A stretch of 64,000 nucleotides of DNA from Gammaproteobacteria bacterium (GCA_028870635.1 JAGWPE010000260.1:2612-66611), one strand, 5' to 3'. Positions 36,060 through 52,480 are shown, counted from the stretch's first letter. A program made the numbers and translations. Notes: generated from the sequence alone by a model not told the origin.

Positions 36060-38859
36060 CTGACATCAGCTCTGTCTTGCCGTAGCGCGCCGGATCCAGC
36101 TGGGCCAGCGCAGCGAAGCTCTTGCGCACCCACTCGTCGTACACCCCCTGGCTCGCGCGCGCCGCGTTCAGCCCGTACATCTTGATGGCCTGCTCCTCGA
36201 AGGGGAATACCTGATCCTCGAGCAGGGAGTTGTATTCGTCGAGCTCCTGGCCGGTCACGTTGCGCGGCCGCTCGGAGGCGAGCACATCCTGCGCCAGCCG
36301 CTGGTAGAGGTCGGCCATCTCGTAAGTCGCTGCCGTGGTGACCTCGGCCACGCCGTACGAGGCGGCCAGCCGGTAGGCCGCCATCGCACGCTCGAGCGCC
36401 CTGCGCTTGGCCTTCAGAGTCCGCGCCAGCGGCAACGTCAGGCGAATGGCCCGAAAGTCCTCGCGCGGCTCGGCGGCCAGCGCAAGCTGCGCCTTCGCGG
36501 CGAGAAAGTGCGTCCGCGGCGTGCGCTGCGCGCCGGCTTCGGCGTCGGCCTGCACGATCTCCCGATACCAGTGGTCGCGGGCGCTCGCGTCACCACCGGC
36601 GGCGGCGTAGTCCGCCAGCCGTTGCCTCGCCTCCTCCGCATCCGCGAGGGGAGCGGGATATTGCGCCACGAGCTTCTCGAGCACCGTCATCGCGTGGGGA
36701 ATGTCGTGAGCCTGGGCATAGAGATCCGCCGAGCGGCGCAGCGCCTCCTTCCTCACGGCAGGTGTCTGCGCAGGCTCGGCGGCGATGGTCTCGAACTGCT
36801 GCGCCGCCTGCATCGGCTGGTTGGCGCCGGCATACGCCACGGCAAGCTTCGCATCCACATCGCTCGTGAGCGCGTGGTGCGGGAAGCGCGCGCGAAAGTC
36901 CTGCAGCACCTGGATGGCGCGGCCCCACTCCTGCAACCGGATGAGCTCCGCGGAAGCATCATAGAGCGCGGTGGCGCAGATGCTCGAGCCTGGAGCCACC
37001 TGCTCGACGCGCAGGAAGTCTCCCACGGCTCCGTCGCCATCGCCCGCCTGCCGCTTCGCGGCTCCCTGCCGATACACGGAGGCGGCTATACGCTCGGTCA
37101 GGTCGGCAGTCATCTTGGAGTCGGAGGCGGCGAGCTCGCGTGCCTGGATGAAAGCGGGCTCCGCCTCGGCGAACTTGCCCTGGTTGTAATTTGCCTCACC
37201 GACGATGGTCCAGGCGATGCGCCGTTTCGCCGCGTCCGCGGGCGGATTGCGCGCCAGCAGTATTCCGGCGATCTTCACGGCCTTTGGCAGGTCGCCCGCC
37301 GCAAACACCGCCTCATCGGCGCGCGTCAACACGCCGGCGCTGTCAGGATGGTCCGGAAATGCCTGTGCGAATCTGACGCCCGAATCGATCGCTCTTCGCT
37401 TCAGGTCGGCCAGCGCGCTGCCGCTCATGCCCGCCTCGGCCTTCTGGTACGCCGTCAACGCGGCATAGCCAGCGCTCTCCGACTGCGCATTCCGCGGGTA
37501 GTCGTAAGCGGTATGCTCGTACTCCGCCGCCGCGTCCGCATACTGCTGTGCAGCGAACAATGCGTCGGCAAGCCGGTGATTCAACTCCGCCGCATCGGTC
37601 GCGGCGGGGAACGAGTCGAGGTATTGCCTGTACCATCGCGCGGCGGCCGCGTAGTCACGCACATCGTGGGTCCGCTGAGCCATCGCGTGATCGTAGGTCG
37701 CCACATCCCTCAGATCGCTCTCGAGCTCCGCGGCGACTTCCGGGTGAGCGGCCCGTGTGCGCGTATTCCAATAAGCGGAGCTGAATCCGTAGTGCTCGAC
37801 GTAGTCCTGCTTGGCCTGGAAGACGAGCTGGCTGAAGCCTCCCTTGGAATAGGCGCGAATGGCGCGGGCCGCGAGATCCGGTGCGGCATCCGATTGCGGG
37901 TTGCTGTCGACGTAAGCGAGGTAAGTTGCGGCGGCGTCCTGGTAACGCTGCTTCGCCACGTAAAGATCGCCGAGCCGCGAATAGAGCAGCGAATCGTAGG
38001 GCCGGGCGCCATACCGGCCGACGAACCGGTCGATCGACTGTGCCCCGGAGTCCTGCGAGAAGGTGATGCTCATGACGCGCAGCGTGTCTTCCACCAGCTC
38101 ACGATCCGCGCGCCGCAAGTCGGTCAGCGGCCGTACCCGTCCCTCGGGCCCCAACAGCTCGCAATCCAGGAGCTTTGCGAACTGGGGCAGGCTCTGCTCC
38201 TGCAGCGATGCCTTGTAGAGCGACCAGCCGCTCTTGTACAGGCTCTGCACATAGAACGGCGATGCGGCGCCGCGGGCGATCACCGCCGCGTACGCCTGCT
38301 CCGCCTCGGAGTAGCGGCGGGCCGAGAAGAGCAGCTCGCCGCGCCGGAACTGCACTTCATCCATGTCCTTGGCGCCCGGATAGCGCTGCACGATGAGGTC
38401 GAGAGTGTGCAGCGCCCGGTCCGGCTGGCCGGTGGTGTCATACGCTCGCGCGAGCTGATAGAGCACCTCGTCGTTATGCTCATAATCGGGGTAGAGCTCG
38501 AGCAGCGTGCCGTAGAGCTTGATGGCCTCGGCCCCGTGCAGATCGATCGAGGAGAGCTCGCTTTGCATCCGCTGCAGGTCCCCAGCGTCGAGGTTGAGGT
38601 CTCCCAGCCGGCGCAGCGCCTCCGCCCGCAGCTTGGGGTCCTTCGCCTGCAGCGCCAGGAATTTCCGATATCCCTCCATCGCGGTCGAGTCGCTGGCGCT
38701 GACCGCACCGCCCGGCACCACCTCCATGGGGTGCGACTCGAGATCGCGGATCGTCGGCGCGCTCGCGGGATCATCGCCCCGGGACTCGGCAATGGGACAC
38801 AACGCCAGGCAGGCGGCCACCACCCCCAACAGCACGAGCACCAGGCGGGCAGCTCTCAC
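36037..38859 (-). CDS. Large periplasmic TPR-repeat protein (940 aa)
   Basis: Signal peptide MRAARLVLVLLGVVAACLALCPIAES. More than 15 TPR/YbgF-like helical repeats run throughout. 4-nt overlap with the upstream gene. Confidence 0.8.
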   Translation of the reverse strand: MRAARLVLVLLGVVAACLALCPIAESRGDDPASAPTIRDLESHPMEVVPGGAVSASDSTAMEGYRKFLALQAKDPKLRAEALRRLGDLNLDAGDLQRMQSELSSIDLHGAEAIKLYGTLLELYPDYEHNDEVLYQLARAYDTTGQPDRALHTLDLIVQRYPGAKDMDEVQFRRGELLFSARRYSEAEQAYAAVIARGAASPFYVQSLYKSGWSLYKASLQEQSLPQFAKLLDCELLGPEGRVRPLTDLRRADRELVEDTLRVMSITFSQDSGAQSIDRFVGRYGARPYDSLLYSRLGDLYVAKQRYQDAAATYLAYVDSNPQSDAAPDLAARAIRAYSKGGFSQLVFQAKQDYVEHYGFSSAYWNTRTRAAHPEVAAELESDLRDVATYDHAMAQRTHDVRDYAAAARWYRQYLDSFPAATDAAELNHRLADALFAAQQYADAAAEYEHTAYDYPRNAQSESAGYAALTAYQKAEAGMSGSALADLKRRAIDSGVRFAQAFPDHPDSAGVLTRADEAVFAAGDLPKAVKIAGILLARNPPADAAKRRIAWTIVGEANYNQGKFAEAEPAFIQARELAASDSKMTADLTERIAASVYRQGAAKRQAGDGDGAVGDFLRVEQVAPGSSICATALYDASAELIRLQEWGRAIQVLQDFRARFPHHALTSDVDAKLAVAYAGANQPMQAAQQFETIAAEPAQTPAVRKEALRRSADLYAQAHDIPHAMTVLEKLVAQYPAPLADAEEARQRLADYAAAGGDASARDHWYREIVQADAEAGAQRTPRTHFLAAKAQLALAAEPREDFRAIRLTLPLARTLKAKRRALERAMAAYRLAASYGVAEVTTAATYEMADLYQRLAQDVLASERPRNVTGQELDEYNSLLEDQVFPFEEQAIKMYGLNAARASQGVYDEWVRKSFAALAQLDPARYGKTELMSDVVKTLN

Positions 38860-40814
38860 GGCTGCGGCGCTCCCGCCTTGCTCTCGCCGCCGGAATGAGC
38901 GGCCTGGTCATAGAGCGTGGCGAGCGCGAACTGCGCCTGGACCCGGTAGCCCTGCAGGCGTTTCTTCTGCCGCTCGAGGTCCTGCACGGCCAGGTCGGCG
39001 AGCGCACGGCTCTGTGTCTGCTCCGCCGCCGCGAGCCGGATCTGAAGAGCCCCGACACGCTGCTGCAAGGCACTCACCCGTCCCGCGAAACCGCCGGTCT
39101 GCGCCTGCAGGAGCTGCCGTCCGCCCTGCAGGCTTGCCCAACCCTGTTGCGCCCGCACCAACTCGAAATCGAGGCTGCGCAACTCCTTGTGCACGCTCCA
39201 CAGGCGCGCCGCGAATTGCTGGTCCATCTGATAGAGCAGGACCCCCCTGACCAGAGCCAGGCGCTCTCTCAGCTTCGCGTATGCAGGGGTGTCTGGATCG
39301 CGGGCGAGCATCGCCTGCGCCCGCAGCACGCGTCCCCACTGCGCCGCCTGGGCCGGCGTCGCGAGCGCCGCCACATCCCGGGTGCGCTGCACCTGCGCCA
39401 GCCGGTCCGCGAGCGCGGCGCGGCGCTGCTGCAAGGTGTTGAGCTCGCCGGAGGTCAGCAGCGCATCCACCTTTGGAGCACGCTCCGCGTAGGCGCGGCG
39501 GCGGGCCACAATCATCTCCTGGAACGCGTCCATGCTGGTCGACCATTGTCCGAGCATCCGCTCCATGAGCTTCAGGTCGCGATAGTTTCTAAGTCCCTGC
39601 TGGAAGTCCGAGCCTGCGAACACGGTGTACAGGTAATGGGATTCCGGATCGTCGGGGACGTTGCCGAGCTGCCAGAACCAGCCGTAACTCAGCCGATCCG
39701 GCAGCGCGTCATCATCGAGCGGGTCGTTGCCGATGTAACCGGAGGCAGCGGAATCGCTCTCGTGGGCCAGCAGCTGCGCGAGCAGACTTCCGCCGCGAAT
39801 GCGGGCAATGGCCGCGTCGATCTGTGCCGACTCATCGTCGTAGGCGCGCAGCGCGGTCCGGTAATATTGTGCCGCCTGCCCCGGCGCTTTCAGCTGGACG
39901 AAGGCATATGGCACCGTAAGGTCGGCCTCCTCCACCGCGGGATCGAACGCGCCGCGGGCCTGCAGCGCCAGCCAGGGAGTGAGCGCGGCGCGGTAGTTGC
40001 CGTCCGCCGCCTCGGCCCAGCCGGCGGCGAGCAGCGCTTCGCTCGAGAAAGGCCCATCCAGCCGCACGCGATCGAGCGCCACCCTCGCCTGGGCAGGCTC
40101 TTTCGCCTGCAGGTAGGCGAGACCCAGCGCCAGGTTGGCGCGGTCCTTGAGGGCCAGCATCTCGGGCGCGAGTGCGTACATCGTGCCCACGGAGGTGAGA
40201 ACGGGCGCCGCCTCCGCCAGCCTGCCCCCGCGCACCAGCGCGATCCCGAGGTTGAGTCGGGCGTATGCCGTCCATCCCTGCTGGGAGCCGCGCCAGCGCT
40301 CGAGCAACTCGGCGGCCTGGTCGAATCGGCCCTCATGCATCCACACGTTCGCAAGCAGCAGCTCCTTCTGCGACTCGAGCTGCGGCGACATCCGCATGCT
40401 GATGCGGGTCAGATCCCGTTCCGCCTCGGCATACTGTCCGCGGGCGTAGAGCGCCTGGGCAAGGTAGAGCCACGCGCGATCGCGCACGCCCGTGGGCACA
40501 TCGCTCGTCAGCAGCCGCTCGAACGACCGGTTCGCCCGGTCGTACATCCCGAGTGAGAGATAGAGTCCCCCGAGCAGCAGGTGCGCGTCGGCCTGATGAT
40601 GGGGCAGCCCCTGCCAATGCTCGTAGGCGAGGAGCCGCGTGGCCGCCTCGAAGTCCTTGCCCTGATAGTAATAAAAGAGCACATCGCCATAGGGCAGGTC
40701 CTGGATACGCACTTCGGGAAGCGCCTCCGGATCGCGCAGGCGTGCCGCGGCCGGCGCTGCTGCGGCGAGCAGCGTCACCGCGGCGAGGGCGCACAGGCAC
40801 GCCGAGCGGACCAA
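38856..40814 (-). CDS. Periplasmic TPR-like plus long coiled-coil protein (652 aa)
   Basis: Signal MVRSACLCALAAVTLLAAAAPAAA. The N-half has TPR-like repeats. The C-half is Q/A/R/L-rich heptad-like coiled coil. Confidence 0.7.
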   Translation of the reverse strand: MVRSACLCALAAVTLLAAAAPAAARLRDPEALPEVRIQDLPYGDVLFYYYQGKDFEAATRLLAYEHWQGLPHHQADAHLLLGGLYLSLGMYDRANRSFERLLTSDVPTGVRDRAWLYLAQALYARGQYAEAERDLTRISMRMSPQLESQKELLLANVWMHEGRFDQAAELLERWRGSQQGWTAYARLNLGIALVRGGRLAEAAPVLTSVGTMYALAPEMLALKDRANLALGLAYLQAKEPAQARVALDRVRLDGPFSSEALLAAGWAEAADGNYRAALTPWLALQARGAFDPAVEEADLTVPYAFVQLKAPGQAAQYYRTALRAYDDESAQIDAAIARIRGGSLLAQLLAHESDSAASGYIGNDPLDDDALPDRLSYGWFWQLGNVPDDPESHYLYTVFAGSDFQQGLRNYRDLKLMERMLGQWSTSMDAFQEMIVARRRAYAERAPKVDALLTSGELNTLQQRRAALADRLAQVQRTRDVAALATPAQAAQWGRVLRAQAMLARDPDTPAYAKLRERLALVRGVLLYQMDQQFAARLWSVHKELRSLDFELVRAQQGWASLQGGRQLLQAQTGGFAGRVSALQQRVGALQIRLAAAEQTQSRALADLAVQDLERQKKRLQGYRVQAQFALATLYDQAAHSGGESKAGAPQP

Positions 40815-40817
40815 GCC

Positions 40818-41453
40818 TTACTCCCAGTCCTGGATTCGGAACTGAGGCTGGAGCTTCTTCTGATCGTCGGTGATCGTGAGCTCGAGGTACTTCGCGCCGA
40901 TGTCCTTCTGGAAGTCCAGGGCGGCGCCACGGGTGTAGTCGAGGTTGTGCGGTCCCTTGCCGGTGAGAAAGGCCACGAGCTGGTGCTTGCCGACTTTGAG
41001 GTTGCCGACGTAGAGCCGCTGCACGCCGCCCTGGACCAGTGCATGAACCTCTCTGGGGGTGTAGAGATAGTCGGCGACCTCCTTGCCGTCTATCTTGAGC
41101 TGTACCGAGTCGAGGGCGAAGAAGGTGCCCGCATCCATGGAGACGAACACGGCCACCTGGGTGTTGGCCGGGTACAGCAGCTCCTGCTCGAGCACGAAGA
41201 GATCGCGATTCAGATCGAGCACGTCGCTTTTCAGCGACTGCACCTGCTCATCCACGGAGCCCCCCTGCCCGGCGGCCGGTTGGGACGCAGCCGCAGTGGC
41301 TGGGGCGGAGGACGCGGAAGGGGTCGGGGCTGCGTTCTGAGCGAAGGTGGCGGGAGCCGCCGCCAGGGCTGCAAGCCCGGCGAGGAGCACGAGCCTGGTG
41401 GTCAGACACATGCCGGCCGGCCGGCGTGCGAGAGGCGACGGAACTTCGGGCAT
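40818..41453 (-). CDS. Secreted hypothetical protein (short coiled coil plus beta-rich domain)
   Basis: Signal ...LVLLAGLAALAAAPATFA, a low-complexity linker, SLKSDVLDLNRDLFVLEQELL, then a beta-rich C-domain. 3-nt gap to the next gene. Confidence 0.6.
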   Translation of the reverse strand: MPEVPSPLARRPAGMCLTTRLVLLAGLAALAAAPATFAQNAAPTPSASSAPATAAASQPAAGQGGSVDEQVQSLKSDVLDLNRDLFVLEQELLYPANTQVAVFVSMDAGTFFALDSVQLKIDGKEVADYLYTPREVHALVQGGVQRLYVGNLKVGKHQLVAFLTGKGPHNLDYTRGAALDFQKDIGAKYLELTITDDQKKLQPQFRIQDWE

Positions 41454-41466: not shown

Positions 41467-41994
41467 TCATTCGGCTAGGAGCGTGCGCAGCTCATCCTCC
41501 CAAACTTGGCGGCTCTTTTCATTGAAGTCGCGCACTACCTGACGAATTTTTCCGTCGCGATCGATCAACACCGTCATCGGCAGGTTGTCGATGTCATATA
41601 CCCGGGCGACGGTCTTGGCCGGATCGAGCAGCAGTGGAAATGTGACATGCATCCCGCGGGCAAAGCGCTGCGCCTCCTGCTGGTCGTCCGCGACCTCCAC
41701 GCCGTAGACCCGCAGGCCTTGGCCGCGGTAACGGCTGAAATCCCGCTGCAGGGCATCGAGCTGCCCGCGGCAGGAATCACAGCCGACGCCCCAGAACGAG
41801 ATCACGACGACCTGGCCGACGTGCTCCGACAGGCGCACGTTGGGTCCGGCGAAGGCCCGCAGGGTGAAATCCGGCGCCGCAGCACCGGCAGAAGCGTGGA
41901 ATCGGGCGGCAAGCGCCGGCAAGGTCCAGGCAAAGGCCAGCGCGGTGACCAGTGCGCGGGAGGGATGCCGCCCCTGTTCTCGCTGTACCGGCAT
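41467..41994 (-). CDS. TlpA/ResA-like periplasmic thiol:disulfide oxidoreductase (paralog 1)
   Basis: Redoxin fold APDFTLRAF...VVVISFWGVGCDSCRGQL, with CxxC = CDSC. Signal peptide present. Confidence 0.8.
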   Translation of the reverse strand: MPVQREQGRHPSRALVTALAFAWTLPALAARFHASAGAAAPDFTLRAFAGPNVRLSEHVGQVVVISFWGVGCDSCRGQLDALQRDFSRYRGQGLRVYGVEVADDQQEAQRFARGMHVTFPLLLDPAKTVARVYDIDNLPMTVLIDRDGKIRQVVRDFNEKSRQVWEDELRTLLAE

Positions 41995-41995: not shown

Positions 41996-43654
41996 TCAGG
42001 CGTGGATCGGCGGGAAGGCGATGAGCGCCTCCTGATCAGTGAGCGAGCCCAGTCCCTGCTTCGGGAACTTCGTGCTGAACTGCCCCTGGAACTGGGTGTG
42101 CAAGGACATGTAATTGAGGACCACCATCTCGACGAGCTGCTCGACGGAGTTCGCTCCCGGGCTCGAGGTGCTGACGACCGAGCCGTCGGCGCTGAAGTAA
42201 CCGATCTGCTGGCTGGCGGCCCCGTTGAGCGGCGCCGTCCGGCCGTTGGGATTGTAGAGGAGAAAGAAGGTGGCCGCGACTGCCGAGGAGTCGCCCTGCC
42301 AGGCGAGCTTGTCGCGCCCGGCCGGGGTGGTGTCGACCATGCTGCTCGAGGTGAGCGAGCCGTCGCTGAACACGTAGATCATGACGGGCTTGCCGAGGCG
42401 CTGGGCGTACTCGAGCACGGCGCCGATCATCTGACCCGCCTTGAAATTGCGCGTCTCGCCCGTCGCCCGCGTGTTGTCGTGATAGTCGAACCCGCCGATG
42501 GAGATCGTGCCCGCCCCTGCGTAGCCGTTCAGCACGAGTTTCATGACCGTCGCCGTCATGGCGACGTCGGAATCGCTGAAGTCCGAGGCGGTGAAGATCG
42601 GTGTGCCCCCGCCGGTGATGTTCGCATCCTGCCTGGGATCGAGGTCCGACGGGTTGCCGAAATTCGCCGAGTTGTAGGCGGCCTTCACATAGTTGCAGCG
42701 CACCTGGTTCTTGAGCTGCGCATCGGACGGCGGATCGGTGTAGAGCTGTACGCCGGGCGTGCCGGTACCGGTATTGGGCTCGGTCAGCACGCCCGTGAAG
42801 GCGGATGCCGGGTCCGATGCGCCGGCACTGTAAGGAGTGGTGCCGGAGCTGATGCGCGCCTGGGATTCCTGCACCGCCACGGAGAGCTCATCGGCACTCG
42901 TCCCGGAGCTCACCAGTCCGACGGCATCGCTCGGCCGATCGATCGTGCTCGGCTGCAGCGCAGAGTTGATCGGCACACCGCCGAGACTCGGCGGCGCCAT
43001 GGAATTGCCGCCGGAGATCGTGGGCTCCGTGCCCACGAGCGTCAGCAGCGAACCGCTGGCGCCGACGTTCGCGATGCCGTACATGGGATTGTGGGGATTG
43101 ATGTTGGTGTCATTCTCCGACAGCGCGGGGAAGACCGCCCCATTGGTGCCGGCGGCCGTGGCCGGGGTCGTGGCTTTCGACAGTATGCCGCGCAGGATGG
43201 CCCCGTCGGAATGCCACAGGAGGCCGAGCGCATTGCTCACGAACCCGGCGGAGCTCGGCACCATGTTGCCCGGAACGCCCATCTTGCCGTAGCCGGCGGT
43301 GGAGAGGAAATTCGCCTGGCCTCCCTGCACGCCCACGATGACCTCCGAGCCCACCAGATTGGCGCCGCCGGCGAGATCGAAACAGATGAAGGGTACCAGG
43401 CCCGCGCCCAGCGATATGTCGCACTGTGTGGTGCCGGTGGCGAGGGTCCCGATGTCGCTGTCGAGCGCAATGGCCGCGCCGGCCTTGCCCGGCTTCAGCA
43501 GAGCGGCGAGCCACGCCGGCGCCATCACCAGTCCCGAGGCGCCCATGAAACCCGCGGAAAGCAGCTCCCGGCGCGTGACCGGACGCCTGTGGTTCTCGTG
43601 CAGGATCGGCTCGTGCAGCGCATGCGGACGGGGAGGCTTCTTTCGGATGAGCAT
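41996..43654 (-). CDS. Tat-exported DUF1501/DUF1552-like protein (552 aa)
   Basis: Twin-arginine leader VTRRELLSAGFMGASGLVMAPAW. GGFDYHDNTRATGE resembles the metal-site motif of DUF1501-type (alkaline-phosphatase-superfamily-like) proteins. The family assignment is tentative. Confidence 0.6.
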   Translation of the reverse strand: MLIRKKPPRPHALHEPILHENHRRPVTRRELLSAGFMGASGLVMAPAWLAALLKPGKAGAAIALDSDIGTLATGTTQCDISLGAGLVPFICFDLAGGANLVGSEVIVGVQGGQANFLSTAGYGKMGVPGNMVPSSAGFVSNALGLLWHSDGAILRGILSKATTPATAAGTNGAVFPALSENDTNINPHNPMYGIANVGASGSLLTLVGTEPTISGGNSMAPPSLGGVPINSALQPSTIDRPSDAVGLVSSGTSADELSVAVQESQARISSGTTPYSAGASDPASAFTGVLTEPNTGTGTPGVQLYTDPPSDAQLKNQVRCNYVKAAYNSANFGNPSDLDPRQDANITGGGTPIFTASDFSDSDVAMTATVMKLVLNGYAGAGTISIGGFDYHDNTRATGETRNFKAGQMIGAVLEYAQRLGKPVMIYVFSDGSLTSSSMVDTTPAGRDKLAWQGDSSAVAATFFLLYNPNGRTAPLNGAASQQIGYFSADGSVVSTSSPGANSVEQLVEMVVLNYMSLHTQFQGQFSTKFPKQGLGSLTDQEALIAFPPIHA

Positions 43655-43678
43655 GGCGTGTGATCTCCTCGTGCCCGG

Positions 43679-46180
43679 CTACTTCAGGGTGAGAGCTGCG
43701 CTGCCGAGCGCCGCCTGGCAGGCCGCCTGGGTCGCCACGGAGACCGTGGCGGTGTAGCTCAGGCTCAGAGTCGGGATCCGGTTCAAGAGCGCGGTGAGCT
43801 CGCTTTGCAGGGCCGTGGCATAGGCCGGGTCGACCGTCGAGCCGACGGCCAGCGCATTCACCAGCGGATTGATCACGATGTCCTCGCTGGCGGTCGTGTT
43901 GAAGAACGAGCCCGCCGGAGTCGTCAGATTGTTGTCGAGCCCCGTGCCGAAGAGGCCGTCGCGGTACGAGGCGTTGCTCACGAGCTCGCTGCAGTACGCG
44001 CCCGCGAGCTGCGTTATGGCCATCTGCTCGGAGGCCGTGAATGCGCCTATCTGCGGCACGGCGGGCAGCGACTGCTCCACCGCGGCATAGGCTGCCGAGA
44101 CGACCGAATCGCTGACCGGCACGCCGGTCACGACCGACATGGAGGCGTTCACCTCGGCGAAGGTATGCACGCCGAGGTCCGGCCGCGCCGTATTGTCGTA
44201 GGACGTCGGATTGGGCGGGACGGAGGGCTCGACGTAGACGTTGGTCTGATTGCCGAGCTGGTCGAACGACAGGAAGAACATGTCGCTGGTCACGCCGGTG
44301 TCGACGCCGATCACCGCGCCGACGCTGGAAAGGAGCTGCCCGTTGGCCGCCGAATAGGCCGGCGCGCCGATCGTGGTGTTGAGGGTCGAGAACGACTGTC
44401 CGACCGTCGGGATCTGCCCGTTGATGCCGATCCGCATGCCTGCGACCGGGATGTTCTGCGGCTGCGCATTGGCGGTGAGGGTGATGAACGTCGGATCGTA
44501 GAAAAGATAGCTGTAATTGTCGTACTGCGCCGCGGTCATCATGATGTAGGACTGGGGAATGCCCACGACGGCGCTCACATCGAACAGCAGGTAATACTTC
44601 TGCCCGACCCCGGCATTGAAATTCTGCTGGATCTGCGCGGGTGTGAGCGCCGAATCGTGGATGGCGAGCATCCTGATCTCGCCCAGCCACTGCCGGTCGC
44701 CCGTGGTCTCGTTGCCGAGCACCAGCGCGAAGGTATTGTCCCAGTTGGCTAGCGAGCCGCCGCCGTTCGGGTCGGCGTCGCCGGTGAACTGGCCGTTCAC
44801 GTACAACCTCTGGCCGTTGACCGGATCGTAGGTGAGCACTATGTGCTGCAGAGCCGCCTGGGCGAAGTTTCCGGTCATGGAAGTCAGCAGCGGCGGGTTG
44901 CCGTTGGTGTCCGTCTTGTCGCTGCGCGTCTGCGCCTGGTACTGCGTGGCGGTCTGACCCAGCGTGACGTCGCGCGCCGTGTCACTGCCGGAATAGCTGA
45001 CGATGTTCGCCTTCGTCTGGGTGATGTTGGCTGGGGATGCCCACACCTCGATCGAGTACTCGCCGGTGGTCTGGATGAGGTTTGCGATCTTCTGGCTGCT
45101 CGTGGTCAGCGCCTGCGCGCGGCTTCCCTGGCCGAAGATGACTCCCCAGGCCTGATCCCACGTCGTGTTGCCGGAGACCGTCAGATCGGCCTCGGGACTG
45201 ACGCCGCTCGTGTCGTAGGCGACGCTGCCCGAGCCTTCCTTGAACTCGTATTTGGCGATCGTGTCGGCGTCATACCGGCTGCCGCCCGAGGCGATGATGC
45301 CCTGCTGCAGCATGAGCGCCTTCGAGATCACCCACGAGGAAGGGACGGTGGCCGGCGTGATGGTGTTGGCGAAACTGGTGATGGCGGCGAGCATCTGTGC
45401 CGCGCTGCCGGGACAGTCCGGCGAGCCGCCGGCGGTGGTCGGCCAGCAGTGGTGCGACTCGGTGGCCAGGCGCTCGACGAAGCGCGAGGCGGCAGGATCG
45501 TCGAGATTGATCTTAGGCTGCGCCTCGATATACGCCTGCGCCAGGCTCGAGCTCGCGAAATACGGCGCTTGCGGCGTGGCGGAATTGGGATCGTGGCACT
45601 GCGAGCAGAAGGTCCTGAGCATCGGCCAGACGGTCGACCCGAAATTACTGGGGTCGCTCGGGAAGGTCTTGGTGCCGCCCACCGACTGATCCGGCGGCGG
45701 CAACAGCTGCACCTTCTCCGCGGCGCCGGCGCCGCCGCCGATCCAGTTCTGGATCCAGGTGAGCATCGTATCCGCGCAGGCCTGCGGCGCGGCGACCCAG
45801 CAATTGTGTCCGCCGCCGACCCGCTGCACCAGCGTCGACTCGCCCGGCTGCGAGGTGTTCACCAGCGGCAGGGCCGCCTGATAGGCGAGATTCACGTCAT
45901 CGGAGCGCGCAAACTGCGGTGACTGTCCTCCCGCGTAGTGGCAGCCGCCGCAGCGGTCCGAGGAGCGGATGTTGTTCCACAGGCTCACTTGGAAGGCCTG
46001 GACGTCCTTGCTCGCCGGCGCGGGCCCGGTGTAATTGCTCGTCGGGGCGGTCCCCGTCGACTGGTTGACCTGAGTCGCGGGACCGCTCGGTCCGCAGCCG
46101 GTCAGCGTCGCGAGAAGCAAGAGACCGGCAGCCGCGGCGAGCGGGCGCGCAGTCATGAAAGCAGGCTCGAGGCGGCTCAT
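43679..46180 (-). CDS. Lipoprotein with duplicated CxxCH module, LamG (concanavalin-like) domain and long C-terminal region (833 aa)
   Basis: Lipobox LATLTGC. Heme-c motifs CGGCH and CSQCH, each followed ~50 aa later by H-x-CW...C. LamG-like segment LVLGNETTGDRQWLGEIRMLAIHDSALTPAQIQQNF. Confidence 0.7.
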   Translation of the reverse strand: MSRLEPAFMTARPLAAAAGLLLLATLTGCGPSGPATQVNQSTGTAPTSNYTGPAPASKDVQAFQVSLWNNIRSSDRCGGCHYAGGQSPQFARSDDVNLAYQAALPLVNTSQPGESTLVQRVGGGHNCWVAAPQACADTMLTWIQNWIGGGAGAAEKVQLLPPPDQSVGGTKTFPSDPSNFGSTVWPMLRTFCSQCHDPNSATPQAPYFASSSLAQAYIEAQPKINLDDPAASRFVERLATESHHCWPTTAGGSPDCPGSAAQMLAAITSFANTITPATVPSSWVISKALMLQQGIIASGGSRYDADTIAKYEFKEGSGSVAYDTSGVSPEADLTVSGNTTWDQAWGVIFGQGSRAQALTTSSQKIANLIQTTGEYSIEVWASPANITQTKANIVSYSGSDTARDVTLGQTATQYQAQTRSDKTDTNGNPPLLTSMTGNFAQAALQHIVLTYDPVNGQRLYVNGQFTGDADPNGGGSLANWDNTFALVLGNETTGDRQWLGEIRMLAIHDSALTPAQIQQNFNAGVGQKYYLLFDVSAVVGIPQSYIMMTAAQYDNYSYLFYDPTFITLTANAQPQNIPVAGMRIGINGQIPTVGQSFSTLNTTIGAPAYSAANGQLLSSVGAVIGVDTGVTSDMFFLSFDQLGNQTNVYVEPSVPPNPTSYDNTARPDLGVHTFAEVNASMSVVTGVPVSDSVVSAAYAAVEQSLPAVPQIGAFTASEQMAITQLAGAYCSELVSNASYRDGLFGTGLDNNLTTPAGSFFNTTASEDIVINPLVNALAVGSTVDPAYATALQSELTALLNRIPTLSLSYTATVSVATQAACQAALGSAALTLK

Positions 46181-46204
46181 GGCTTACCCCCTGATCAAGC
46201 CGGC

Positions 46205-47422
46205 TCAGGACCCGGCGCACGCGGCGGCAGATTCCTGAAACACCTGTTTCAGGTGATAGCCGCTGTCTTTGAAGTCCTTCTCGATGGTCGCGACCGTCGT
46301 CTGGTCGGTCTGGCTCACCGGTGCGCGCAGGCACACCTGCTGGAAGACCTTGACGACCTGGCAGTTGGCGAACGCCTCGGTATTCTCGAGCTCCTGGCCC
46401 AGGGACGCCGCGCCCTCGCCGCTGCCGGGCAGGCTCGCGTCCCAGCCGAGGCCGGCGTTCGGCCCCGAGCGCCAGCGGTTCGACCAGGTATCGTCGGGCG
46501 TGACGAAGCCCCAGGGGAAGTTCTGGGGATTCTTCAGGTACTTCGGCTGCACCTGCCCCTGCGTGTACACGAGCTGGTTGCTGGTGGTGCTGAAATCGTA
46601 GTAGGCGAACGCCTGCGCCATCGGATCCATGCCGCTGTGGCAGCCGGCGCAGTTGTTGAGGAACACCCGGCTGTCGCCGCCGGGAGAGCGCGCCACGTCC
46701 TGGCGGATCCGGTCGGTCGGCCGCGTATTGTCCATCACCGTCTGCATGTCGTGGCAGAGGTAGTTGAGCATCGTGAAGCGGAATTGCGCGCGGTTGGTGC
46801 CCAGCACGAAGAAGGCAGCGGCTCCCGCGCGCGTCGTCCATACGCCCGCGACCGCCTGGGCCGGAGTGCCGTACACCGCCGTCTGGGTGTTCTGCTGCAG
46901 AGCGCTGGCGAAGTCGACGCCATCCGCCTCGGCCGTCGCGTAGTGATCGTTGTTCGCCGGCGAAGGCGCCGGCAGGCCCGGCGCATTGACGGTATAGAGA
47001 ATGTTCGCCGACAGCACCGTATTGAACGGCACGTCGTCCCGCACCATGCCGATCACGGTGGCCGTATAGTCGTTGAACGGGACGAACGCCGACTGATTGC
47101 GGTTGGTCCAGGGATTGACGAATTCCTTCAGCGTCACATCGTAGAAATCCGGGGCGTTCTGCGGATCGGTGGCGACGGCCGCGGCGGCTATGAGGCTCTG
47201 CTGGCTGCCCTGGCCGCTCGTGATGAGCTGCGTCATCTGCGAGAGCACCTGGGACGAGGGCGGTACGCCGGCGAGGCGCGTGTAGATGCGCCGCGCCTGC
47301 TCGGCATAACCGGCGTAAGCGGGAGGGGCCGCCTGCACCGCCAACAGCGCGAGGGCGACCGCGCCGCAGACGGCGCGCGGCGCGAGAGACTCGCGGCGGC
47401 GGTTTTTCACTCGATGTTTCAT
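46205..47422 (-). CDS. Secreted CxxCH protein, DUF1588-like (405 aa)
   Basis: Signal AVALALLAVQAAPPAYA. NNCAGCHSGMDPMAQAFAYYDF resembles the C-x-x-C-H-x-x-[IM]-D-P motif of planctomycete-type DUF1588/PSCyt3 proteins. Tentative. Confidence 0.6.
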   Translation of the reverse strand: MKHRVKNRRRESLAPRAVCGAVALALLAVQAAPPAYAGYAEQARRIYTRLAGVPPSSQVLSQMTQLITSGQGSQQSLIAAAAVATDPQNAPDFYDVTLKEFVNPWTNRNQSAFVPFNDYTATVIGMVRDDVPFNTVLSANILYTVNAPGLPAPSPANNDHYATAEADGVDFASALQQNTQTAVYGTPAQAVAGVWTTRAGAAAFFVLGTNRAQFRFTMLNYLCHDMQTVMDNTRPTDRIRQDVARSPGGDSRVFLNNCAGCHSGMDPMAQAFAYYDFSTTSNQLVYTQGQVQPKYLKNPQNFPWGFVTPDDTWSNRWRSGPNAGLGWDASLPGSGEGAASLGQELENTEAFANCQVVKVFQQVCLRAPVSQTDQTTVATIEKDFKDSGYHLKQVFQESAAACAGS

Positions 47423-47460
47423 GGCACCCGTTCACTCCCAAATGCCGATGCGCGGGCAGC

Positions 47461-47490
47461 ACTATACCGGCTGGAAATGGCGGAAACCAA
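47461..47490 (-). promoter_or_regulatory. Possible sigma-70 promoter for the minus-strand arm
   Basis: On the minus strand: TTGGTT (47490-47485), 18-nt spacer, TATAGT (47466-47461), ~38 nt upstream of ATG 47422. Prediction from pattern alone. Confidence 0.25.
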
Positions 47491-47777
47491 CGTCGCAGGA
47501 CGCCGACATTCCTGTTGTTTGATGTCACTTTCCAACAATCCCCGTCCATCGCCGCCGCAGTCCGCGCTGTTGGCTCGATCGGCGCCCGCCAAAGTGCGAG
47601 TCCGTTCACGGCGGTGCACTGACATGAGAGGGCCTACTAGCGCGGCTCGAATCGCGGACCGGCCGCAAACGTGACCGGATCGACACGGCCGCAAGAACGG
47701 CTGCGGCGACGCTCAGGTTATGTTACGTTCGCCCCTCGCCGGAATCGGCCGCGACGGGCCCGTCCGGAGTGGTTGGC

Positions 47778-50444
47778 ATGAGCTTGCAGCGTGAAATCGT
47801 GACGCAGTTCTCAGAAAGACCGCGGGTCCGGACACCGGGCCGCCGCGCCGCGGCGGCGCTCATCCTCTGCCTCGCCCTGACCCTCGGCGGCTGCGGCGGC
47901 GGCGGCGGCGGCAGCGTCAATCTTGCCAACAGCCAGGGGCCGGACCCCGGCACCGTCGATTTCCCGATTTTCTACGTCAAGCGGACGATTCCCAAGACGT
48001 CCGATGACTTACGCATGATGCGCGTAACCTCTCCGTCGGCGGATCTCTACATGCGCTCCGCCGCTTCGCCGAATGCGCCGGAGACGAACATCACCGCGCG
48101 CATCACCGCCGGCAAGAGCTACGACGTAAAGGATGTAGATGTGTCGCCGGACGGCACCAGGGTCGCGTTCGCGATGCGAGGGCCCGTCACGGCGAACATG
48201 GATCCGGCAAAGGCCCCTTCCTGGCGCATCTACGAATACACGATCGCGACCAATACGCTCGCGCCGATGATCGACCCGGCGGCGGACACGGCGCCGACCA
48301 CGGTGAACGATGTCTCGCCGCATTACCTACCGGACGGCAGCATCGTCTTCTCCTCCACGCGCCAGAGGAATTCGCAGGCGATCCTGATCAACGAGGGCAA
48401 GCCGCAGTTCATCGCCGAAGACGAGGCGCGCACCGAGCCGATCTTCGACCTGCACGTGATCAGCGCCGACCGCACCAAGATCGATCAGATCTCGTTCAAT
48501 CAGAGCCATGACCGCGACGCCACCGTGCTCGCCGACGGACGCATTCTCTTCACCCGCTGGAACCATACCCCGGGCAAGGACCAGATGGATCTCTACACGA
48601 TCAATCCGGACGGCACGGACCTCGAGCTCTACTACGGCGCCCAGAGCCACATGACCGGCACCAACGGCAGCGTCATCGAGTTCTCCCATCCGCACGAGAT
48701 GCAGAGCGGCAATGTTCTCGTGATCGCGCGGCAATACACCGGCGTCGACTTCGGCGGCCAGCTGGAGATCATCGACGGTACCCACTATGTGGAGAACACG
48801 CAGCCGCTCCTAGCCTATCCCGCGCTCACGGGACCTGCCCAGATGCCGGCGACGACCAATCCCGTGAGCACGCTCCCGGGACCCTCCCCGGGCGGCAGAT
48901 TCTATTCCGCATGGCCGCTCTGGGACGGCACGGGACGCGTCCTGGTGAGCTGGAGCGAGTGCCGGCTGCTCGACAACACCCAGACTCCGCCGGCCATCGT
49001 GCCCTGCACGACCCAGGCGCTGCAGAACCCCAACGCTCAGGCCGCCCCGCCGCTCTACAGCCTGTGGATGTTCGATCCCGTCCAGAACACCTTCACCCCG
49101 ATCATTCAGCCCACCGAGGGAGTGATGGTCACGGACGTCGCCGCCGCGCAGCCGCGGACGATTCCGAAGATCATTCCGCCCATCACTCCGGATCCGGAGC
49201 TCCAGGGCGAAGGCGTGGGTGAGGTCGACATCAAGAGCGTCTATGACTTCGATGGAGTGGATACGGCGCCAGGCGGAATCGTGACGCTCTCCGACGGCAA
49301 GACGCCGGCCACCGCCCGGCCGGCCCGCTTCATCCGCATGGTGAAAGCGGTCTCGATCCCGGACCGGACGGTGATCAATCTCGCGCAGGCGGCGTTCGGC
49401 GCCTCTGACTACATGCGGGAGATCATGGGTTACGCGCCGATCGAGCCGGATGGCTCGGTGAAGATCAAAGTCCCGGCGGACGTCGCCTTCGAGATCAGCA
49501 TCCTGGACGCCAACGGTCGGCGCGTCCCCGGCGTCCCGGAGCACAGCGACTGGCTGCAGCTGAGAGCCGGCGAGGTGGTCACGTGCAACGGCTGCCACAC
49601 ACCGCCGACCACGGCCAAGCCCTACTCGCACGGGCGGGCCGGCTTGTTTCCCGCCGCTTACTCCGGAGCGGCGGGCGGCGCACCGTTTCCGGACAGCGTC
49701 GCGACGTACCTGCCTCAGGCCGGCCAGACCATGGCTGAGGCGCGCGCAGCCGTCAGCTGCGTGGGCAGCGCTCTCTCCACGGCGCAGTGCAGCATGACGC
49801 CCAGCATCGACGTGTTCTACACGGACGTGTGGACCGATACCTCGCAGGGCCTGACGGCGAATCCGACCATCGCTTATCAGTACTCGGCGCTGCCGACCGG
49901 CGAGGTGGCGCCCATCCCCGCGGCCACTCCCGGATGCGAGGGCACCTGGGCCTCGAACTGCCGCATCGTCATCAATTATCCGGAGCACATCCAGCCGATC
50001 TGGGACGAGCCGCGGAAGGTGACGGACGCTTCGGGCAACGTCACGGCCGACCACACCTGCACCCAGGGCGGCTGCCACAGCCCGACGAACGCCGCCGGGG
50101 CGCCCGCGCAGCCGGCCGGCAACCTGGACCTCTCGAAGACGGCCTCGAACTCCGATCCGAACGAGCTCGTCTCCTATGTCGACCTGCTGTTCCCCCACAA
50201 CATCCCCGGGCCGCCCGATGCGAGCGGCAATCCGACCACCATCTCCGTGGGGCCGTTTCTCGATGCCGGCAGTGCCAACGGCCCGGACTCGCAGGCCTCG
50301 CTGGCGCTGTTCGCCAGCGGCAGCGGCGATGCCATCCACGCGGGAATTCTCTCGCCCGATGAGCTGCGCCTGATCTCCGAGTGGCTCGACATCGGCGCAC
50401 AGAACTACAACAACCCGTTCGATCCGAACGTGCCGAAGAATTAG
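47778..50444 (+). CDS. Lipoprotein with TolB/PD40-like beta-propeller and C-terminal CxxCH-containing region (about 890 aa)
   Basis: Lipobox LALTLGGC followed by a Gly6 linker. PD40-like repeats (DVDVSPDGTRVAFAM, SPHYLPDGSIVFSS, LADGRILFTRW, INPDGTDLELYY). CNGCH plus CTQGGCH (CX4CH). The domain order recalls proteins carrying a hydrazine-synthase-alpha-like middle domain; this is tentative. An alternative GTG lies at 47769. Confidence 0.7.
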   Translation: MSLQREIVTQFSERPRVRTPGRRAAAALILCLALTLGGCGGGGGGSVNLANSQGPDPGTVDFPIFYVKRTIPKTSDDLRMMRVTSPSADLYMRSAASPNAPETNITARITAGKSYDVKDVDVSPDGTRVAFAMRGPVTANMDPAKAPSWRIYEYTIATNTLAPMIDPAADTAPTTVNDVSPHYLPDGSIVFSSTRQRNSQAILINEGKPQFIAEDEARTEPIFDLHVISADRTKIDQISFNQSHDRDATVLADGRILFTRWNHTPGKDQMDLYTINPDGTDLELYYGAQSHMTGTNGSVIEFSHPHEMQSGNVLVIARQYTGVDFGGQLEIIDGTHYVENTQPLLAYPALTGPAQMPATTNPVSTLPGPSPGGRFYSAWPLWDGTGRVLVSWSECRLLDNTQTPPAIVPCTTQALQNPNAQAAPPLYSLWMFDPVQNTFTPIIQPTEGVMVTDVAAAQPRTIPKIIPPITPDPELQGEGVGEVDIKSVYDFDGVDTAPGGIVTLSDGKTPATARPARFIRMVKAVSIPDRTVINLAQAAFGASDYMREIMGYAPIEPDGSVKIKVPADVAFEISILDANGRRVPGVPEHSDWLQLRAGEVVTCNGCHTPPTTAKPYSHGRAGLFPAAYSGAAGGAPFPDSVATYLPQAGQTMAEARAAVSCVGSALSTAQCSMTPSIDVFYTDVWTDTSQGLTANPTIAYQYSALPTGEVAPIPAATPGCEGTWASNCRIVINYPEHIQPIWDEPRKVTDASGNVTADHTCTQGGCHSPTNAAGAPAQPAGNLDLSKTASNSDPNELVSYVDLLFPHNIPGPPDASGNPTTISVGPFLDAGSANGPDSQASLALFASGSGDAIHAGILSPDELRLISEWLDIGAQNYNNPFDPNVPKN

Positions 50445-50452
50445 GACCAGGC

Positions 50453-51217
50453 TTGCGCAGCGCCCTGACCGCCCTCCTGTTGCTACTTGCAATGCTCATG
50501 GCTCCGGCCGTGTGCAGCGCCCACCTGTTCAAGCACCACGCGCGCCGCTACGTGCAGGTATACGTCAAGACCCCATATCTCGAGCTGCACACGGGACCTG
50601 GCCGTGGCTATCCGGTATTCGACGTCGTCCCGCGGGGCGAGAGTGTCACCGTACTCTTCCGGCGTACGCAATGGCTGAAGGTCCGTACTCGCCGGGGCGC
50701 CGAGGGATGGGCGTCGGAAGACGACATGCTGCAGACAGTGCTCGCCGACGGCCGGGCCCTGCCGCTGCACATCGGCAACCGCGCCGGATTCACCTCACAC
50801 CGCTTCGAGGCGGGAGCATTCGCGGGCGTCTATGGCGGCGCGAACCTCGTCTCCGCATACACGTCCCTGTCGTTCAACCCGCAGCTGGCCGTCGAGGCGT
50901 CGGTCGGCCAGATCCTCGGCAGGTATTCCAACGGCGTCACCGCCGACATCGGCCTCACTCACGTGCCGATGCCGCAGTGGCGGCTGAGCCCCTTCCTGAT
51001 GCTCGGCCTCGGGGTATTGCACGTGGAGCCGAAGGCTACTCTGGTTCAACCGGCGAACCGCACCGAGCAGACGGCGTATGTGGGGGGCGGCTTTCGCTAT
51101 TACATCGGCCGCAGCTTCTTCCTGCGCGCCGAATACAAGACTCATGTCGTGATCACGACGCAGAATCGAAATCAGGTGGAGGACGAATGGAAACTCGGGT
51201 TCGCGGTCTTTTTCTGA
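50453..51217 (+). CDS. SH3-like domain fused to an outer-membrane beta-barrel domain
   Basis: TTG 50453 gives the signal (M)RSALTALLLLLAMLMAPAVCSA; an ATG alternative lies at 50492. SH3_3-like YLELHTGPGRGYPVFDVVPRGESVTVLFRRTQWLKVRT..GAEGWA. The C-terminal barrel ends in the aromatic ...WKLGFAVFF. Confidence 0.65.
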   Translation: MRSALTALLLLLAMLMAPAVCSAHLFKHHARRYVQVYVKTPYLELHTGPGRGYPVFDVVPRGESVTVLFRRTQWLKVRTRRGAEGWASEDDMLQTVLADGRALPLHIGNRAGFTSHRFEAGAFAGVYGGANLVSAYTSLSFNPQLAVEASVGQILGRYSNGVTADIGLTHVPMPQWRLSPFLMLGLGVLHVEPKATLVQPANRTEQTAYVGGGFRYYIGRSFFLRAEYKTHVVITTQNRNQVEDEWKLGFAVFF

Positions 51218-51921: not shown

Positions 51922-51938
51922 GGCTCGGAGGATACGAC

Positions 51939-52427
51939 ATGAGGAATCGAATCGCGGCCCTGGCCGCCATCCTGACGCTCGCCGTGCCGGCTTGGGCCGC
52001 AGCCGCCGGCGTGCAGGCCCCGGCGTTCACGCTGCAGTCCGTCGACGGCAGGACGGTGAGTCTCGCGCAGTTCAAGGGCGATGTGGTCATGATCAACTTC
52101 TGGGCGAGCTGGTGCGGCCCCTGCCGGCAGGAGATGCCGCTGCTCGACAGCATCTACAAACAGTACAAGGACATGGGTTTCGTCCTGCTCGGGGTGAATG
52201 TCGAGCCTGACTCGCACAGCGCCAACGCCTGGCTGAAGAAGACGCCGGTCAGCTATCCCATTCTGTACGATCCGAAGAGCCAGGTGAGTCAGCTCTATCA
52301 GGTGCAGGCCATGCCGACGACGGTCATCGTCGACCGCCAGGGCATCGTGCGGTTCGTGCACAACGGCTACCTGCCGGGTGATGAGAACCAGTACATGAAC
52401 AGCATCAGGACGCTGATCGTCCAGTAG
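51939..52427 (+). CDS. TlpA family thiol:disulfide oxidoreductase (paralog 2)
   Basis: A GGAG Shine-Dalgarno sequence lies 8 nt upstream of ATG 51939. Signal MRNRIAALAAILTLAVPAWA. APAFTLQSVDG...VVMINFWASWCGPCRQEMP (CGPC). Confidence 0.85.
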   Translation: MRNRIAALAAILTLAVPAWAAAAGVQAPAFTLQSVDGRTVSLAQFKGDVVMINFWASWCGPCRQEMPLLDSIYKQYKDMGFVLLGVNVEPDSHSANAWLKKTPVSYPILYDPKSQVSQLYQVQAMPTTVIVDRQGIVRFVHNGYLPGDENQYMNSIRTLIVQ

Positions 52428-52480
52428 GCCATCTCATGCACATAATGCTTGCCCACTGGCTCAAACGGGGCACATCCCTT

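Follow-up and report, generated by a model that had tools for sequence, protein, structure and literature searches.

In a 64-kb stretch of DNA with ~67% GC (hereafter the window, to whose coordinates positions refer unless another locus is named), whose nearest relatives by sequence search are Steroidobacteraceae, we found three adjacent minus-strand open reading frames (ORFs), named g1, g2 and g3, which encode two exported proteins with conserved haem motifs and a third protein with a leader for the twin-arginine translocation (Tat) pathway. We propose, with a probability of about 0.5, that this triad acts outside the cytoplasm as a redox-coupled metalloenzyme module and represents a lineage that has diverged deeply within the systems in which a cytochrome or helical partner accompanies a Tat-exported DUF1501 protein. 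The three genes are as follows:

g1, 46205-47422, minus strand: 405 aa, Sec-exported, predicted monohaem protein, remotely PSCyt3- and PSD2-like.
g2, 43679-46180, minus strand: 833-aa lipoprotein with two duplicated cytochrome modules, a LamG domain, a second beta domain and a helical C-terminal domain.
g3, 41996-43654, minus strand: 552 aa, Tat-exported, apparently a divergent DUF1501-like protein of the alkaline phosphatase superfamily.

With a third-position GC of 0.88-0.89, g1, g2 and g3 can be told apart as real genes from the many spurious ORFs that this high-GC DNA contains. They are tightly spaced, with 24 nt between g1 and g2 (46181-46204), 24 nt between g2 and g3 (43655-43678), and 1 nt between g3 and the start of the next gene, g4. 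A preliminary description of this DNA had claimed an exported three-gene haem module related to planctomycete PSCyt and DUF proteins. In our analysis, the three ORFs were found at the stated lengths with 24 nt between them, and the CxxCH motifs, the g2 lipobox, and the RR leader and GGFDYHD motif of g3 were likewise confirmed. The exported haem module itself was also upheld, since all three proteins carry export signals and both CxxCH proteins keep their haem motifs across orthologues.

To collect related loci, GTDB genomes were scanned with degenerate patterns and tblastn, which gave at least 598 confirmed species, and the locus was extracted from 80 other species. All 66 loci with adequate flank retain the order g1-g2-g3, which also holds down to ~30% identity. 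Cultured carriers include four species of Marinobacter, two of Microbulbifer, and Aliiglaciecola; in these cultured, aerobic organisms the triad occurs as a single copy per locus. Some homologues that are 67-85% identical are labelled Streptosporangiaceae, Chloroflexota or Gemmatimonadales in the records of metagenome-assembled genomes (P0143, P0157, L006), and such labels are most likely binning errors rather than signs of recent transfer.

The g1 protein begins with a Sec-type leader ending in AYA and contains the haem motif NNCAGCHSGMDP...YYDF, in which C258, C261 and H262 are 100% conserved among 68 sequences. Residue conservation in g1 and g2 was determined with 67 orthologues of each from other species (41-89% identity), among which four further cysteines of g1 (223, 354, 364 and 402) are 99-100% conserved. 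Pfam matches to g1 fell below the gathering threshold (GA): PSD2 matched residues 336-394 (E 2e-4; 21.5 bits, GA 25.8 bits) and PSCyt3 matched residues 254-276 (E 0.01; 16.5 bits, GA 27 bits), together with a PSCyt2 match at E 0.065. These weak matches are co-linear, with PSCyt3 around the CxxCH and PSD2 at the C terminus, and they recurred when 38 orthologues were examined, PSD2 in 33/38 (best E 7.1e-6) and PSCyt3 in 20/38. A precomputed match to PF07624 was also present on three clusters of g1 homologues (P0140, P0214, P0220). We read this signal as genuine, such that g1 appears to be a real yet remote PSCyt3+PSD2 homologue. Profile-profile comparisons of g1 with g2, g3 with g1, and g3 with g2 detected no homology within the triad.

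The g2 protein combines a lipobox, two CxxCH motifs and a Laminin_G_3 domain in one exported polypeptide. Its lipobox is LTGC29, and the lipobox cysteine is 99-100% conserved. Two cytochrome modules follow, C77GGCH...GH125NC127W...C135 and C192SQCH...H243HC245W...C256, which aligned with each other by BLASTP (E 1e-9; 30% identity over 73 aa), in agreement with the duplication claimed previously. Both CxxCH motifs are 100% conserved, and the second-ligand-like histidine and cysteine pair of each module (H125/C127/C135 and H243/C245/C256) are 99-100% conserved. The preliminary description had made covalent haem depend on conservation of the CxxCH cysteines in orthologues; with the Cys and His of the haem motifs conserved at 99-100%, this check did not refute it. 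A distant locus, L081 (5944-6417, 2187-2612 and 6440-7489, minus strand), encodes small lipoproteins that are homologues of the g2 cytochrome module and carry Cx4CH motifs (CANGGCH, CGAAGCH, CSGATCH) rather than CxxCH; the C-terminal CTQGGCH of d1 is spaced alike.

Beyond the cytochrome modules, the LamG-like domain noted earlier was recovered as Laminin_G_3 (residues 364-518; E 6.9e-19). Neither PSCyt1, PSCyt2 nor PSD1 matched g2 at E<=1, nor did any Pfam family outside LamG, and the sole trace of PSCyt was a faint PSCyt1 match (E 0.066) in one distant split g2 homologue. The AlphaFold2 (AF2) model of g2, with a mean predicted local distance difference test (pLDDT) score of 67, contains helical cytochrome modules at ~58-147 and ~178-272 and a LamG jelly-roll at ~300-525. 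The remaining ~330 aa, described previously as unassigned, indeed lack a Pfam match, yet the model divides them into a second beta domain (~528-645) and a helical C-terminal domain (~669-833). In Foldseek searches, the middle region of g2 matched the clostridial neurotoxin Hc and trans-sialidase lectin domains (E ~1e-8).

The g3 family is large and has no Pfam model. An exhaustive search yielded 1170 clusters at 50% identity, from which g3 and 44 diverse relatives (28-53% identity) were used as a 45-sequence set. The leader of g3, TRRELL, follows the pattern T-R28-R29-x-[FL]-L, with RR invariant in 45/45 sequences down to 28% identity. D/E93 is conserved in 44/45 sequences, and S/T179, D182, N186, D390, H392, D431, D455 and Q483 are each conserved in 45/45; D390 and H392 lie in the GGFDYHD motif (residues 387-393). 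This constellation fits a candidate metal site with a Ser/Thr nucleophile. The region preceding RR is conserved as well, as P-x-x-H-x-x-H-[KR]-x-P-x-T-R-R (residues 16-29; 43568-43609, minus strand), with H22 kept in 44/45 relatives, including those at ~30% identity, and this motif is absent from the leaders of true DUF1501 proteins. It could be a binding site for a chaperone or proofreading factor, or a metal-binding element.

To compare g3 with DUF1501, genes were taken from metagenomes by means of the GGWDTHxNQ motif, and PF07394 matched 37/37 of these control proteins. In contrast, no Pfam family matched g3 or its 44 relatives, and DUF1501 and DUF1552 were found in 0/45 even at E<=1. Comparison of profiles by hhalign gave a modest probability of 60.5% (E 8.4e-5) between g3 and the verified DUF1501 set. 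Six control pairs of unrelated alignments gave 0.04-3.9%; the four that included the g3 or DUF1501 profile stayed at 0.4% or below, the 3.9% came from a pair with neither, and three further controls against DUF1800 gave 0.1-0.2%. At a relaxed maximum accuracy (MAC) setting, the alignment of g3 with DUF1501 was co-linear from the RR leader to the C terminus over 395 columns. It paired PFICFDLAGG with LVVIFLRGA, S179xxD182 with RSHFD, GGFDYH with GGWDTH, SDG with SEFGR, and D455 with GTDHG. The DUF1501 signatures themselves (GGWDTHxNQ, SEFGRT, GTDHG and RSHFD, all at least 90% conserved in the DUF1501 set) do not occur in g3, which has G-[YF]-D-Y-H, S-D-G, G-D-[SN]-S and S-x-x-D-T-x-x-N at these positions. 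g3 retains the Asp, His and Ser cores of the signatures but not their Trp, Glu-Phe-Gly-Arg or DH histidine.

The AF2 model of g3 (pLDDT 83) gave weak Foldseek matches in the PDB (best E 7e-3; TM 0.15-0.22 over ~140 aligned columns), and the top 50 matches all belong to the alkaline phosphatase, sulfatase, cofactor-independent phosphoglycerate mutase (iPGM), nucleotide pyrophosphatase/phosphodiesterase (NPP) or PorX superfamily. The structural check suggested earlier therefore led, weakly, to alkaline-phosphatase-superfamily folds only. Neither NCBIfam (for g1, g2 and g3) nor sequence and profile searches of PDB sequences (for the same proteins and two derived alignments) gave a match. From its sequence features, g3 is most aptly described as a DUF1501-like protein that has diverged far and lies outside PF07394 as currently defined. 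Four g3 homologues (P0084, P0103, P0104, P0113) are named "general secretion pathway protein GspF" by NCBI, which looks like a propagated misannotation without support from sequence, profile or fold. The flavinylation-like SGGNS of g3 was rejected as a candidate site, as it does not conform to the [ST]-G-A-[ST] pattern.

The preliminary description had assigned these proteins to PSCyt and DUF families, and had itself taken a lack of significant profile hits as evidence to the contrary. Such membership fails at the level of Pfam profiles, since no PSCyt, PSD, DUF1501 or DUF1552 model reached its GA in any of the three proteins; what survives is the weak, recurrent PSCyt3/PSD2 signal of g1 and the profile-profile similarity of g3 to DUF1501. 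The pairing that it described also appears crossed, with a PSCyt3/PSD2-like g1 standing beside a DUF1501-like rather than a DUF1552-like g3.

Distant relatives of the triad differ in how the parts of g2 are joined. In three split forms from low-GC organisms (L081, L085 and L208; ~30% identity), a g1-like gene is accompanied by genes for a small lipoprotein, a g3-like protein and a separate cytochrome-module protein. The small lipoprotein (238-279 aa) is homologous to the C-terminal domain of g2 and is also separate in L082, and the cytochrome protein of the split forms has one to three modules of the g2 type. The earlier idea of a "split" system fits this finding, as g2 itself occurs as separate genes. 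A 40% GC organism has two complete triads in tandem (L083, 860-11488; 407/706/495 aa and 386/693/495 aa), with one cytochrome module per g2 homologue and no DUF3570 context within 10 kb. The four-gene split forms stand alone in a housekeeping context, and L083, like L208, has housekeeping or unrelated genes around it. Fission and fusion of g2 parts always took place inside the same cluster. Because split, duplicated and stand-alone forms exist, it appears that g1, the parts of g2, and g3 constitute an ancient, self-contained unit that is prone to fusion and fission. In L081, the split module adjoins a gene for a 499-aa protein (14080-15579) with N-terminal CAACH and CQGCH motifs and a long beta-rich region ending in an aromatic residue. 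This protein resembles a fused porin-cytochrome, which hints that other lineages may use a haem barrel in place of DUF3570.

In the window, the triad comes first in a compact minus-strand operon with the order g1-g2-g3-g4-g5-TPRx3-g9-ExbB-ExbD-ExbD-TonB-ApbE (TPR, tetratricopeptide repeat), and a divergent plus-strand operon begins 346 bp upstream of g1 with d1, a protein that resembles the alpha subunit of hydrazine synthase (HZS). The genes that accompany the triad are:

g4, 41467-41994, minus strand: exported TlpA/AhpC-TSA-type thioredoxin-like protein with C72xxC75 (AhpC-TSA E 1.3e-24).
g5, 40818-41453, minus strand: conserved secreted protein of 211 aa without a family assignment.
g6-g8, 35268-40814, minus strand: three TPR proteins of 652, 940 and 263 aa.
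g9, within 31832-35335, minus strand: 181 aa, without a family assignment.
ExbB, 34005-34661, minus strand: PF01618, E 1.6e-28.
First ExbD, 33444-33962, minus strand: PF02472.
Second ExbD, 32923-33447, minus strand: PF02472.
TonB, 31832-32740, minus strand: TonB C-terminal domain, PF03544, E 1.8e-6.
ApbE flavin transferase, 30736-31815, minus strand: E 2e-78, final gene of the minus-strand operon.
d1, 47769-50444, plus strand: 891-aa lipoprotein (C42) with a PD40/beta-propeller followed by an HZS_alpha middle domain, C606xxCH and C764x4CH.
SH3-like and small outer-membrane beta-barrel protein, 50381-51217, plus strand: start uncertain.
d2, 51187-51921, plus strand: small OMP_b-brl lipoprotein; the ORF opens at 50512 and the likely start is Met226.
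d3, 51918-52427, plus strand: TlpA-like thioredoxin with WCGPC.
DUF4266, 52436-52753, plus strand: small protein with a C-terminal GCGCN (CXC motif), PF14086, E 8.9e-22.
DUF3570, 52744-53952, plus strand: outer-membrane-barrel-like protein, PF12094, E 9.5e-40.

The divergent operon, with its HZS-alpha-like cytochrome, TlpA, DUF4266 and DUF3570 genes and with ApbE nearby, had been missed in the preliminary description and proved to be a more constant neighbour than TonB. Upstream, among 66 loci with full upstream flank, g1 and g2 were present in all 66, TlpA in 63, d1 in 62 and DUF3570 in 60; for these three genes together with DUF4266 the range is 60-63. Downstream, among 63 loci with full downstream flank, g4 was found in 47, ExbB in 49, g5 in 51 and the TPR proteins in 51-52. 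ApbE directly adjoins g3 in Marinobacter, Microbulbifer and L209; in Marinobacter it follows g3 without intervening TPR or TonB genes. The TonB-motor context described previously is thus real here and in ~80% of close relatives, but it is absent from Marinobacter, Aliiglaciecola and the stand-alone forms. In Gammaproteobacteria, the flavin module is the most constant companion of the triad and the TonB motor is a frequent accessory; the stand-alone forms need neither. In the loci examined, g5 and the three TPR proteins always travel with ExbB-ExbD-ExbD-TonB, as a TPR-rich TonB-motor cassette of which 35268-41453 is a part. The window has the complete set of ExbB, two ExbD proteins and the TonB C-terminal domain, and no Plug or TonB_dep_Rec protein was detected among the cluster genes scanned.

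The locus contains DUF3570, DUF4266, thioredoxin-like (AhpC-TSA/Redoxin E ~1e-32) and ApbE genes together. A previous study showed experimentally that DUF3570 is flavinylated by ApbE at two [S/T]GA[S/T] sites, and left its function open (Meheust et al. 2021, PMC8238504). The DUF3570 protein of the window has the tandem motif DMISSASIDVLLSASPY, which represents two flavinylation-type sites, and 54 DUF3570 sequences conserve D-x-[IV]-S-[SGA]-A-S-[IV]-D-V-x-x-[ST]-A-S-P-Y, mostly with Ser in place of Gly. The HZS_alpha middle domain of d1 (E 2e-12) carries CNGCH. A link of d1 to JDVT-CTERM was dismissed as irrelevant, since d1 is a lipoprotein and lacks a sorting signal at its C terminus. The gene at 50381-51217 overlaps the spurious long 5' extension of ORF 50512-51921. 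Its product has a barrel that ends in FAVFF and is 35-39% identical to the product of the same-position gene in Marinobacter and Aliiglaciecola; the L209 counterpart matches SH3_3 and OMP_b-brl.

The divergent intergenic region (47423-47768, 346 bp) gave no sigma-70-like promoter match and no Rfam match, and Rfam had no match over the whole window. In a promoter and terminator scan of 30.5-48 kb, which is uninformative at 67% GC, neither a sigma-70-like promoter nor, on the minus strand, a convincing internal terminator was detected. The window also encodes rpoN (22592-23968) and a sigma-54 activator (16723-18189). A 91-aa ORF between g1 and d1 (47419-47694) was judged spurious, as it has no family and was matched in the closest relatives only.

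On the basis of these observations, we suggest that g3 would be the catalytic subunit and would already be folded, probably with a metal centre inside, when Tat exports it from the cytoplasm. Its alkaline-phosphatase-type core would provide a Ser/Thr179-x-x-Asp182 element and the candidate metal ligands Asp93, Asp390, His392, Asp431 and Asp455. g1 would carry one haem c and g2, anchored to a membrane as a lipoprotein, two haem c modules of the His/His type, and the two proteins together would exchange electrons, in one direction or the other, with g3 or with the substrate of g3. In g2, the LamG and beta domains, which are lectin-like, would bind a substrate or partner, and the helical C-terminal domain would dock the protein to g1 and g3. 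Here and in most gammaproteobacterial relatives, the triad would be coupled through TlpA-like thioredoxins to the DUF4266 CXC protein and from there to the ApbE-flavinylated DUF3570 barrel, along with the HZS-alpha-like haem lipoprotein. The TPR/ExbB-ExbD-TonB motor, usually co-transcribed, would energise or gate an outer-membrane step. Because the triad recurs in so many GTDB species, in tandem duplicates and in stand-alone split forms, we consider it a self-contained functional unit.

A more ambitious version of this model is possible, although we think it unlikely. The triad, the HZS-alpha-like lipoprotein and the flavinylated DUF3570 barrel could together form a redox machine that spans the outer membrane, as the flavin-barrel counterpart of porin-cytochrome conduits. 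At the cell surface, it would supply or remove electrons on behalf of a DUF1501-like metalloenzyme whose substrate is extracellular or lies in the envelope, with a dedicated TonB motor as a gate in many lineages.

Several points weigh against the proposal of a redox-coupled metalloenzyme module. The hhalign probability of 60% and the Foldseek matches of g3 are weak, and no Pfam GA was reached for the cytochrome and PSD regions of g1, for g2 outside LamG, or for g3. The structural division of g2 comes from a model of moderate confidence. The His of GTDHG and the Glu of SEFGR are lost in g3, so its chemistry may differ from that of DUF1501 proteins. No alkaline-phosphatase-superfamily enzyme is known to need cytochromes, so that a redox role of g3 itself is hypothetical. 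Finally, neither a protein for electron entry at the inner membrane (DsbD/CcdA or a quinol dehydrogenase) nor a TonB-dependent receptor is encoded in the window.

The systems most similar to the triad are the modules of the Planctomycetes-Verrucomicrobia-Chlamydiae (PVC) group, in which DUF1501 is accompanied by PSCyt1, PSCyt2 and PSD1. Each genome of Planctomycetes and Verrucomicrobia encodes dozens of DUF1501, PSCyt and PSD proteins, which have been without a function since their description (PMC5615132, PMC3542564). Like the window locus with its DUF1501-like g3, the PVC modules place a Tat-exported DUF1501-type protein beside exported CxxCH proteins, some of them with Laminin_G_3 (Kamneva et al. 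2012, PMC3542564). Electron transfer is the suspected role. The layout of cytochrome, Laminin_G_3 and Tat partner recognized earlier agrees with that account, whose most complex clusters add a PSCyt1/WD40 cytochrome and beta-propeller protein to which d1 can be compared (PMC3542564). The differences are that g3, though co-linear with DUF1501, is outside PF07394 and has GGFDYH, SDG and GD(S/N) instead of GGWDTH, SEFGR and GTDHG, together with the conserved HxxH(K/R)xPxTRR n-region; that g2 is without PSCyt1, PSCyt2 and PSD1; and that the host is a Steroidobacteraceae-like gammaproteobacterium in which the triad is linked to DUF3570/ApbE and TonB modules. By analogy, the window module may function like the PVC DUF1501/PSCyt systems, yet it misses the curated thresholds and several signature residues.

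In a second group of systems, PSCyt3 and PSD proteins (DUF1588, DUF1585, DUF1587, DUF1592, DUF1595) occur with DUF1552. PSCyt3-type genes usually adjoin a conserved partner gene (PMC5615132), and g1 shares with their products a CxxCH in a PSCyt3-like stretch and a PSD2-like C terminus. However, g1 has merely 405 aa, lacks detectable PSD3, PSD4 and PSD5, and scores below GA, and its partner g3 is DUF1501-like, with no DUF1552 signal in the 45 family members. A third arrangement emerged from the upstream neighbours of the verified DUF1501 genes: 33 were found, 26 were aligned, and 26/26 were DUF1800. Such DUF1800-DUF1501 pairs, common in Proteobacteria and Acidobacteria, resemble the triad in that the gene for an exported helical protein precedes one for a Tat-exported protein of the DUF1501 type. 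In contrast to g1, the DUF1800 proteins listed lack CxxCH, and a relationship of g1 to DUF1800 was ruled out (hhalign 2.8%).

The flavin module corresponds to the DUF3570/DUF4266/thioredoxin-like/ApbE cluster of Meheust et al. (2021, PMC8238504), all four components of which are present in the window with the tandem [S/T]xA[S/T] sites kept. Here, it is syntenic with the haem triad and the HZS-alpha-like lipoprotein, and no DsbD is nearby; this association is not mentioned in the parts of that article's text and supplement available to us (PMC8238504). At the domain level, d1 shares with hydrazine synthase alpha a beta-propeller followed by an HZS_alpha middle domain with CxxCH. Unlike hydrazine synthase, it is a lipoprotein without beta or gamma partners in a host that is not anammox, and the likeness is limited to one haem-binding domain. 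The literature retrieved on PSCyt, DUF1552, DUF1588, DUF4266 or an HZS-like protein in Marinobacter consisted of genomic descriptions only, with no functional work.

Alternatively, the locus might serve reductive uptake of iron or another metal. Surface or periplasmic haems and flavinylated DUF3570 would reduce Fe(III) complexes or minerals, TonB and the barrels would mediate import, and g3 would handle the metal or its ligand. Consistent with this idea, the TonB/ExbBD/TPR genes share the operon in ~80% of relatives, an ORF that resembles a TonB-dependent receptor, as judged from its N-terminal sequence, lies beside the cluster in Aliiglaciecola (L063), and Meheust et al. (2021, PMC8238504) linked flavinylation clusters, among them 25 DUF3570 clusters with VIT1, to the reduction and assimilation of iron. 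On the other hand, the window cluster lacks transporters for ferrous or ferric iron, siderophore genes, Fur-type regulators and TonB-dependent receptors, a transporter for any metal is absent from it and its surroundings in the window, and the TonB genes are missing from Marinobacter and the stand-alone forms. We regard metal uptake as doubtful.

The resemblance of the g2 middle region to carbohydrate- and ganglioside-binding jelly-rolls (neurotoxin Hc and trans-sialidase lectin) raises another possibility, which we judge to be improbable, namely that the triad processes a glycan or polymer. In this scheme, LamG would target a polysaccharide (sulfated or phosphorylated) or surface polymer, g3 would act like a sulfatase or phosphatase, and the cytochromes would feed an oxidative step, as Cbp2D domains do for lytic polysaccharide monooxygenases (LPMOs). 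PSCyt proteins often carry carbohydrate-binding modules, Laminin_G_3 or F5_F8_type_C domains (PMC5615132, PMC3542564), a DUF1587-containing cytochrome protein reduces LPMOs (PMC8981238), and the alkaline phosphatase fold takes in sulfatases. However, in every locus examined the conserved cluster lacks glycoside hydrolases, LPMOs, sulfatase-maturating enzymes and sugar transporters, and within the window no carbohydrate-active enzyme lies in or near it. Moreover, g3 has no formylglycine motif of the CxPxR type, and the stand-alone forms occur among housekeeping genes.

That the PSCyt/DUF1501 likeness is convergent or spurious, and the triad a set of unrelated neighbours with functions of their own (for instance, a cytochrome of the periplasm, a lectin lipoprotein and some other Tat substrate), would agree with family matches below curated thresholds and an hhalign probability of only 60%, but it is highly improbable given the invariant gene order, the confinement of g2 fission to the cluster, the tight spacing, hhalign controls that are 150-fold lower, and weak Pfam matches that are co-linear and recur across orthologues.

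While PVC systems of DUF1501 and PSCyt proteins were known, though uncharacterised, what seems new from sequence comparison is the diverged gammaproteobacterial triad and its link to DUF3570/ApbE. A large unannotated family, that of g3, sometimes mislabelled GspF, appears to be a far-diverged relative of DUF1501. Its conserved pre-RR signal-peptide motif merits a family model, as does the compact haem module defined here, CxxCH...H-x-C-W...C with its Cx4CH variants. One conserved locus physically joins two orphan systems, the DUF1501/PSCyt-like and the DUF3570/ApbE systems, often together with a TonB motor. The cultured gammaproteobacterial hosts, with a single copy per locus, should be far easier to test than planctomycetes with dozens of paralogues. 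If the outer-membrane redox machine were to prove true, it would give a biochemical role to the DUF1501/PSCyt class and to DUF3570.

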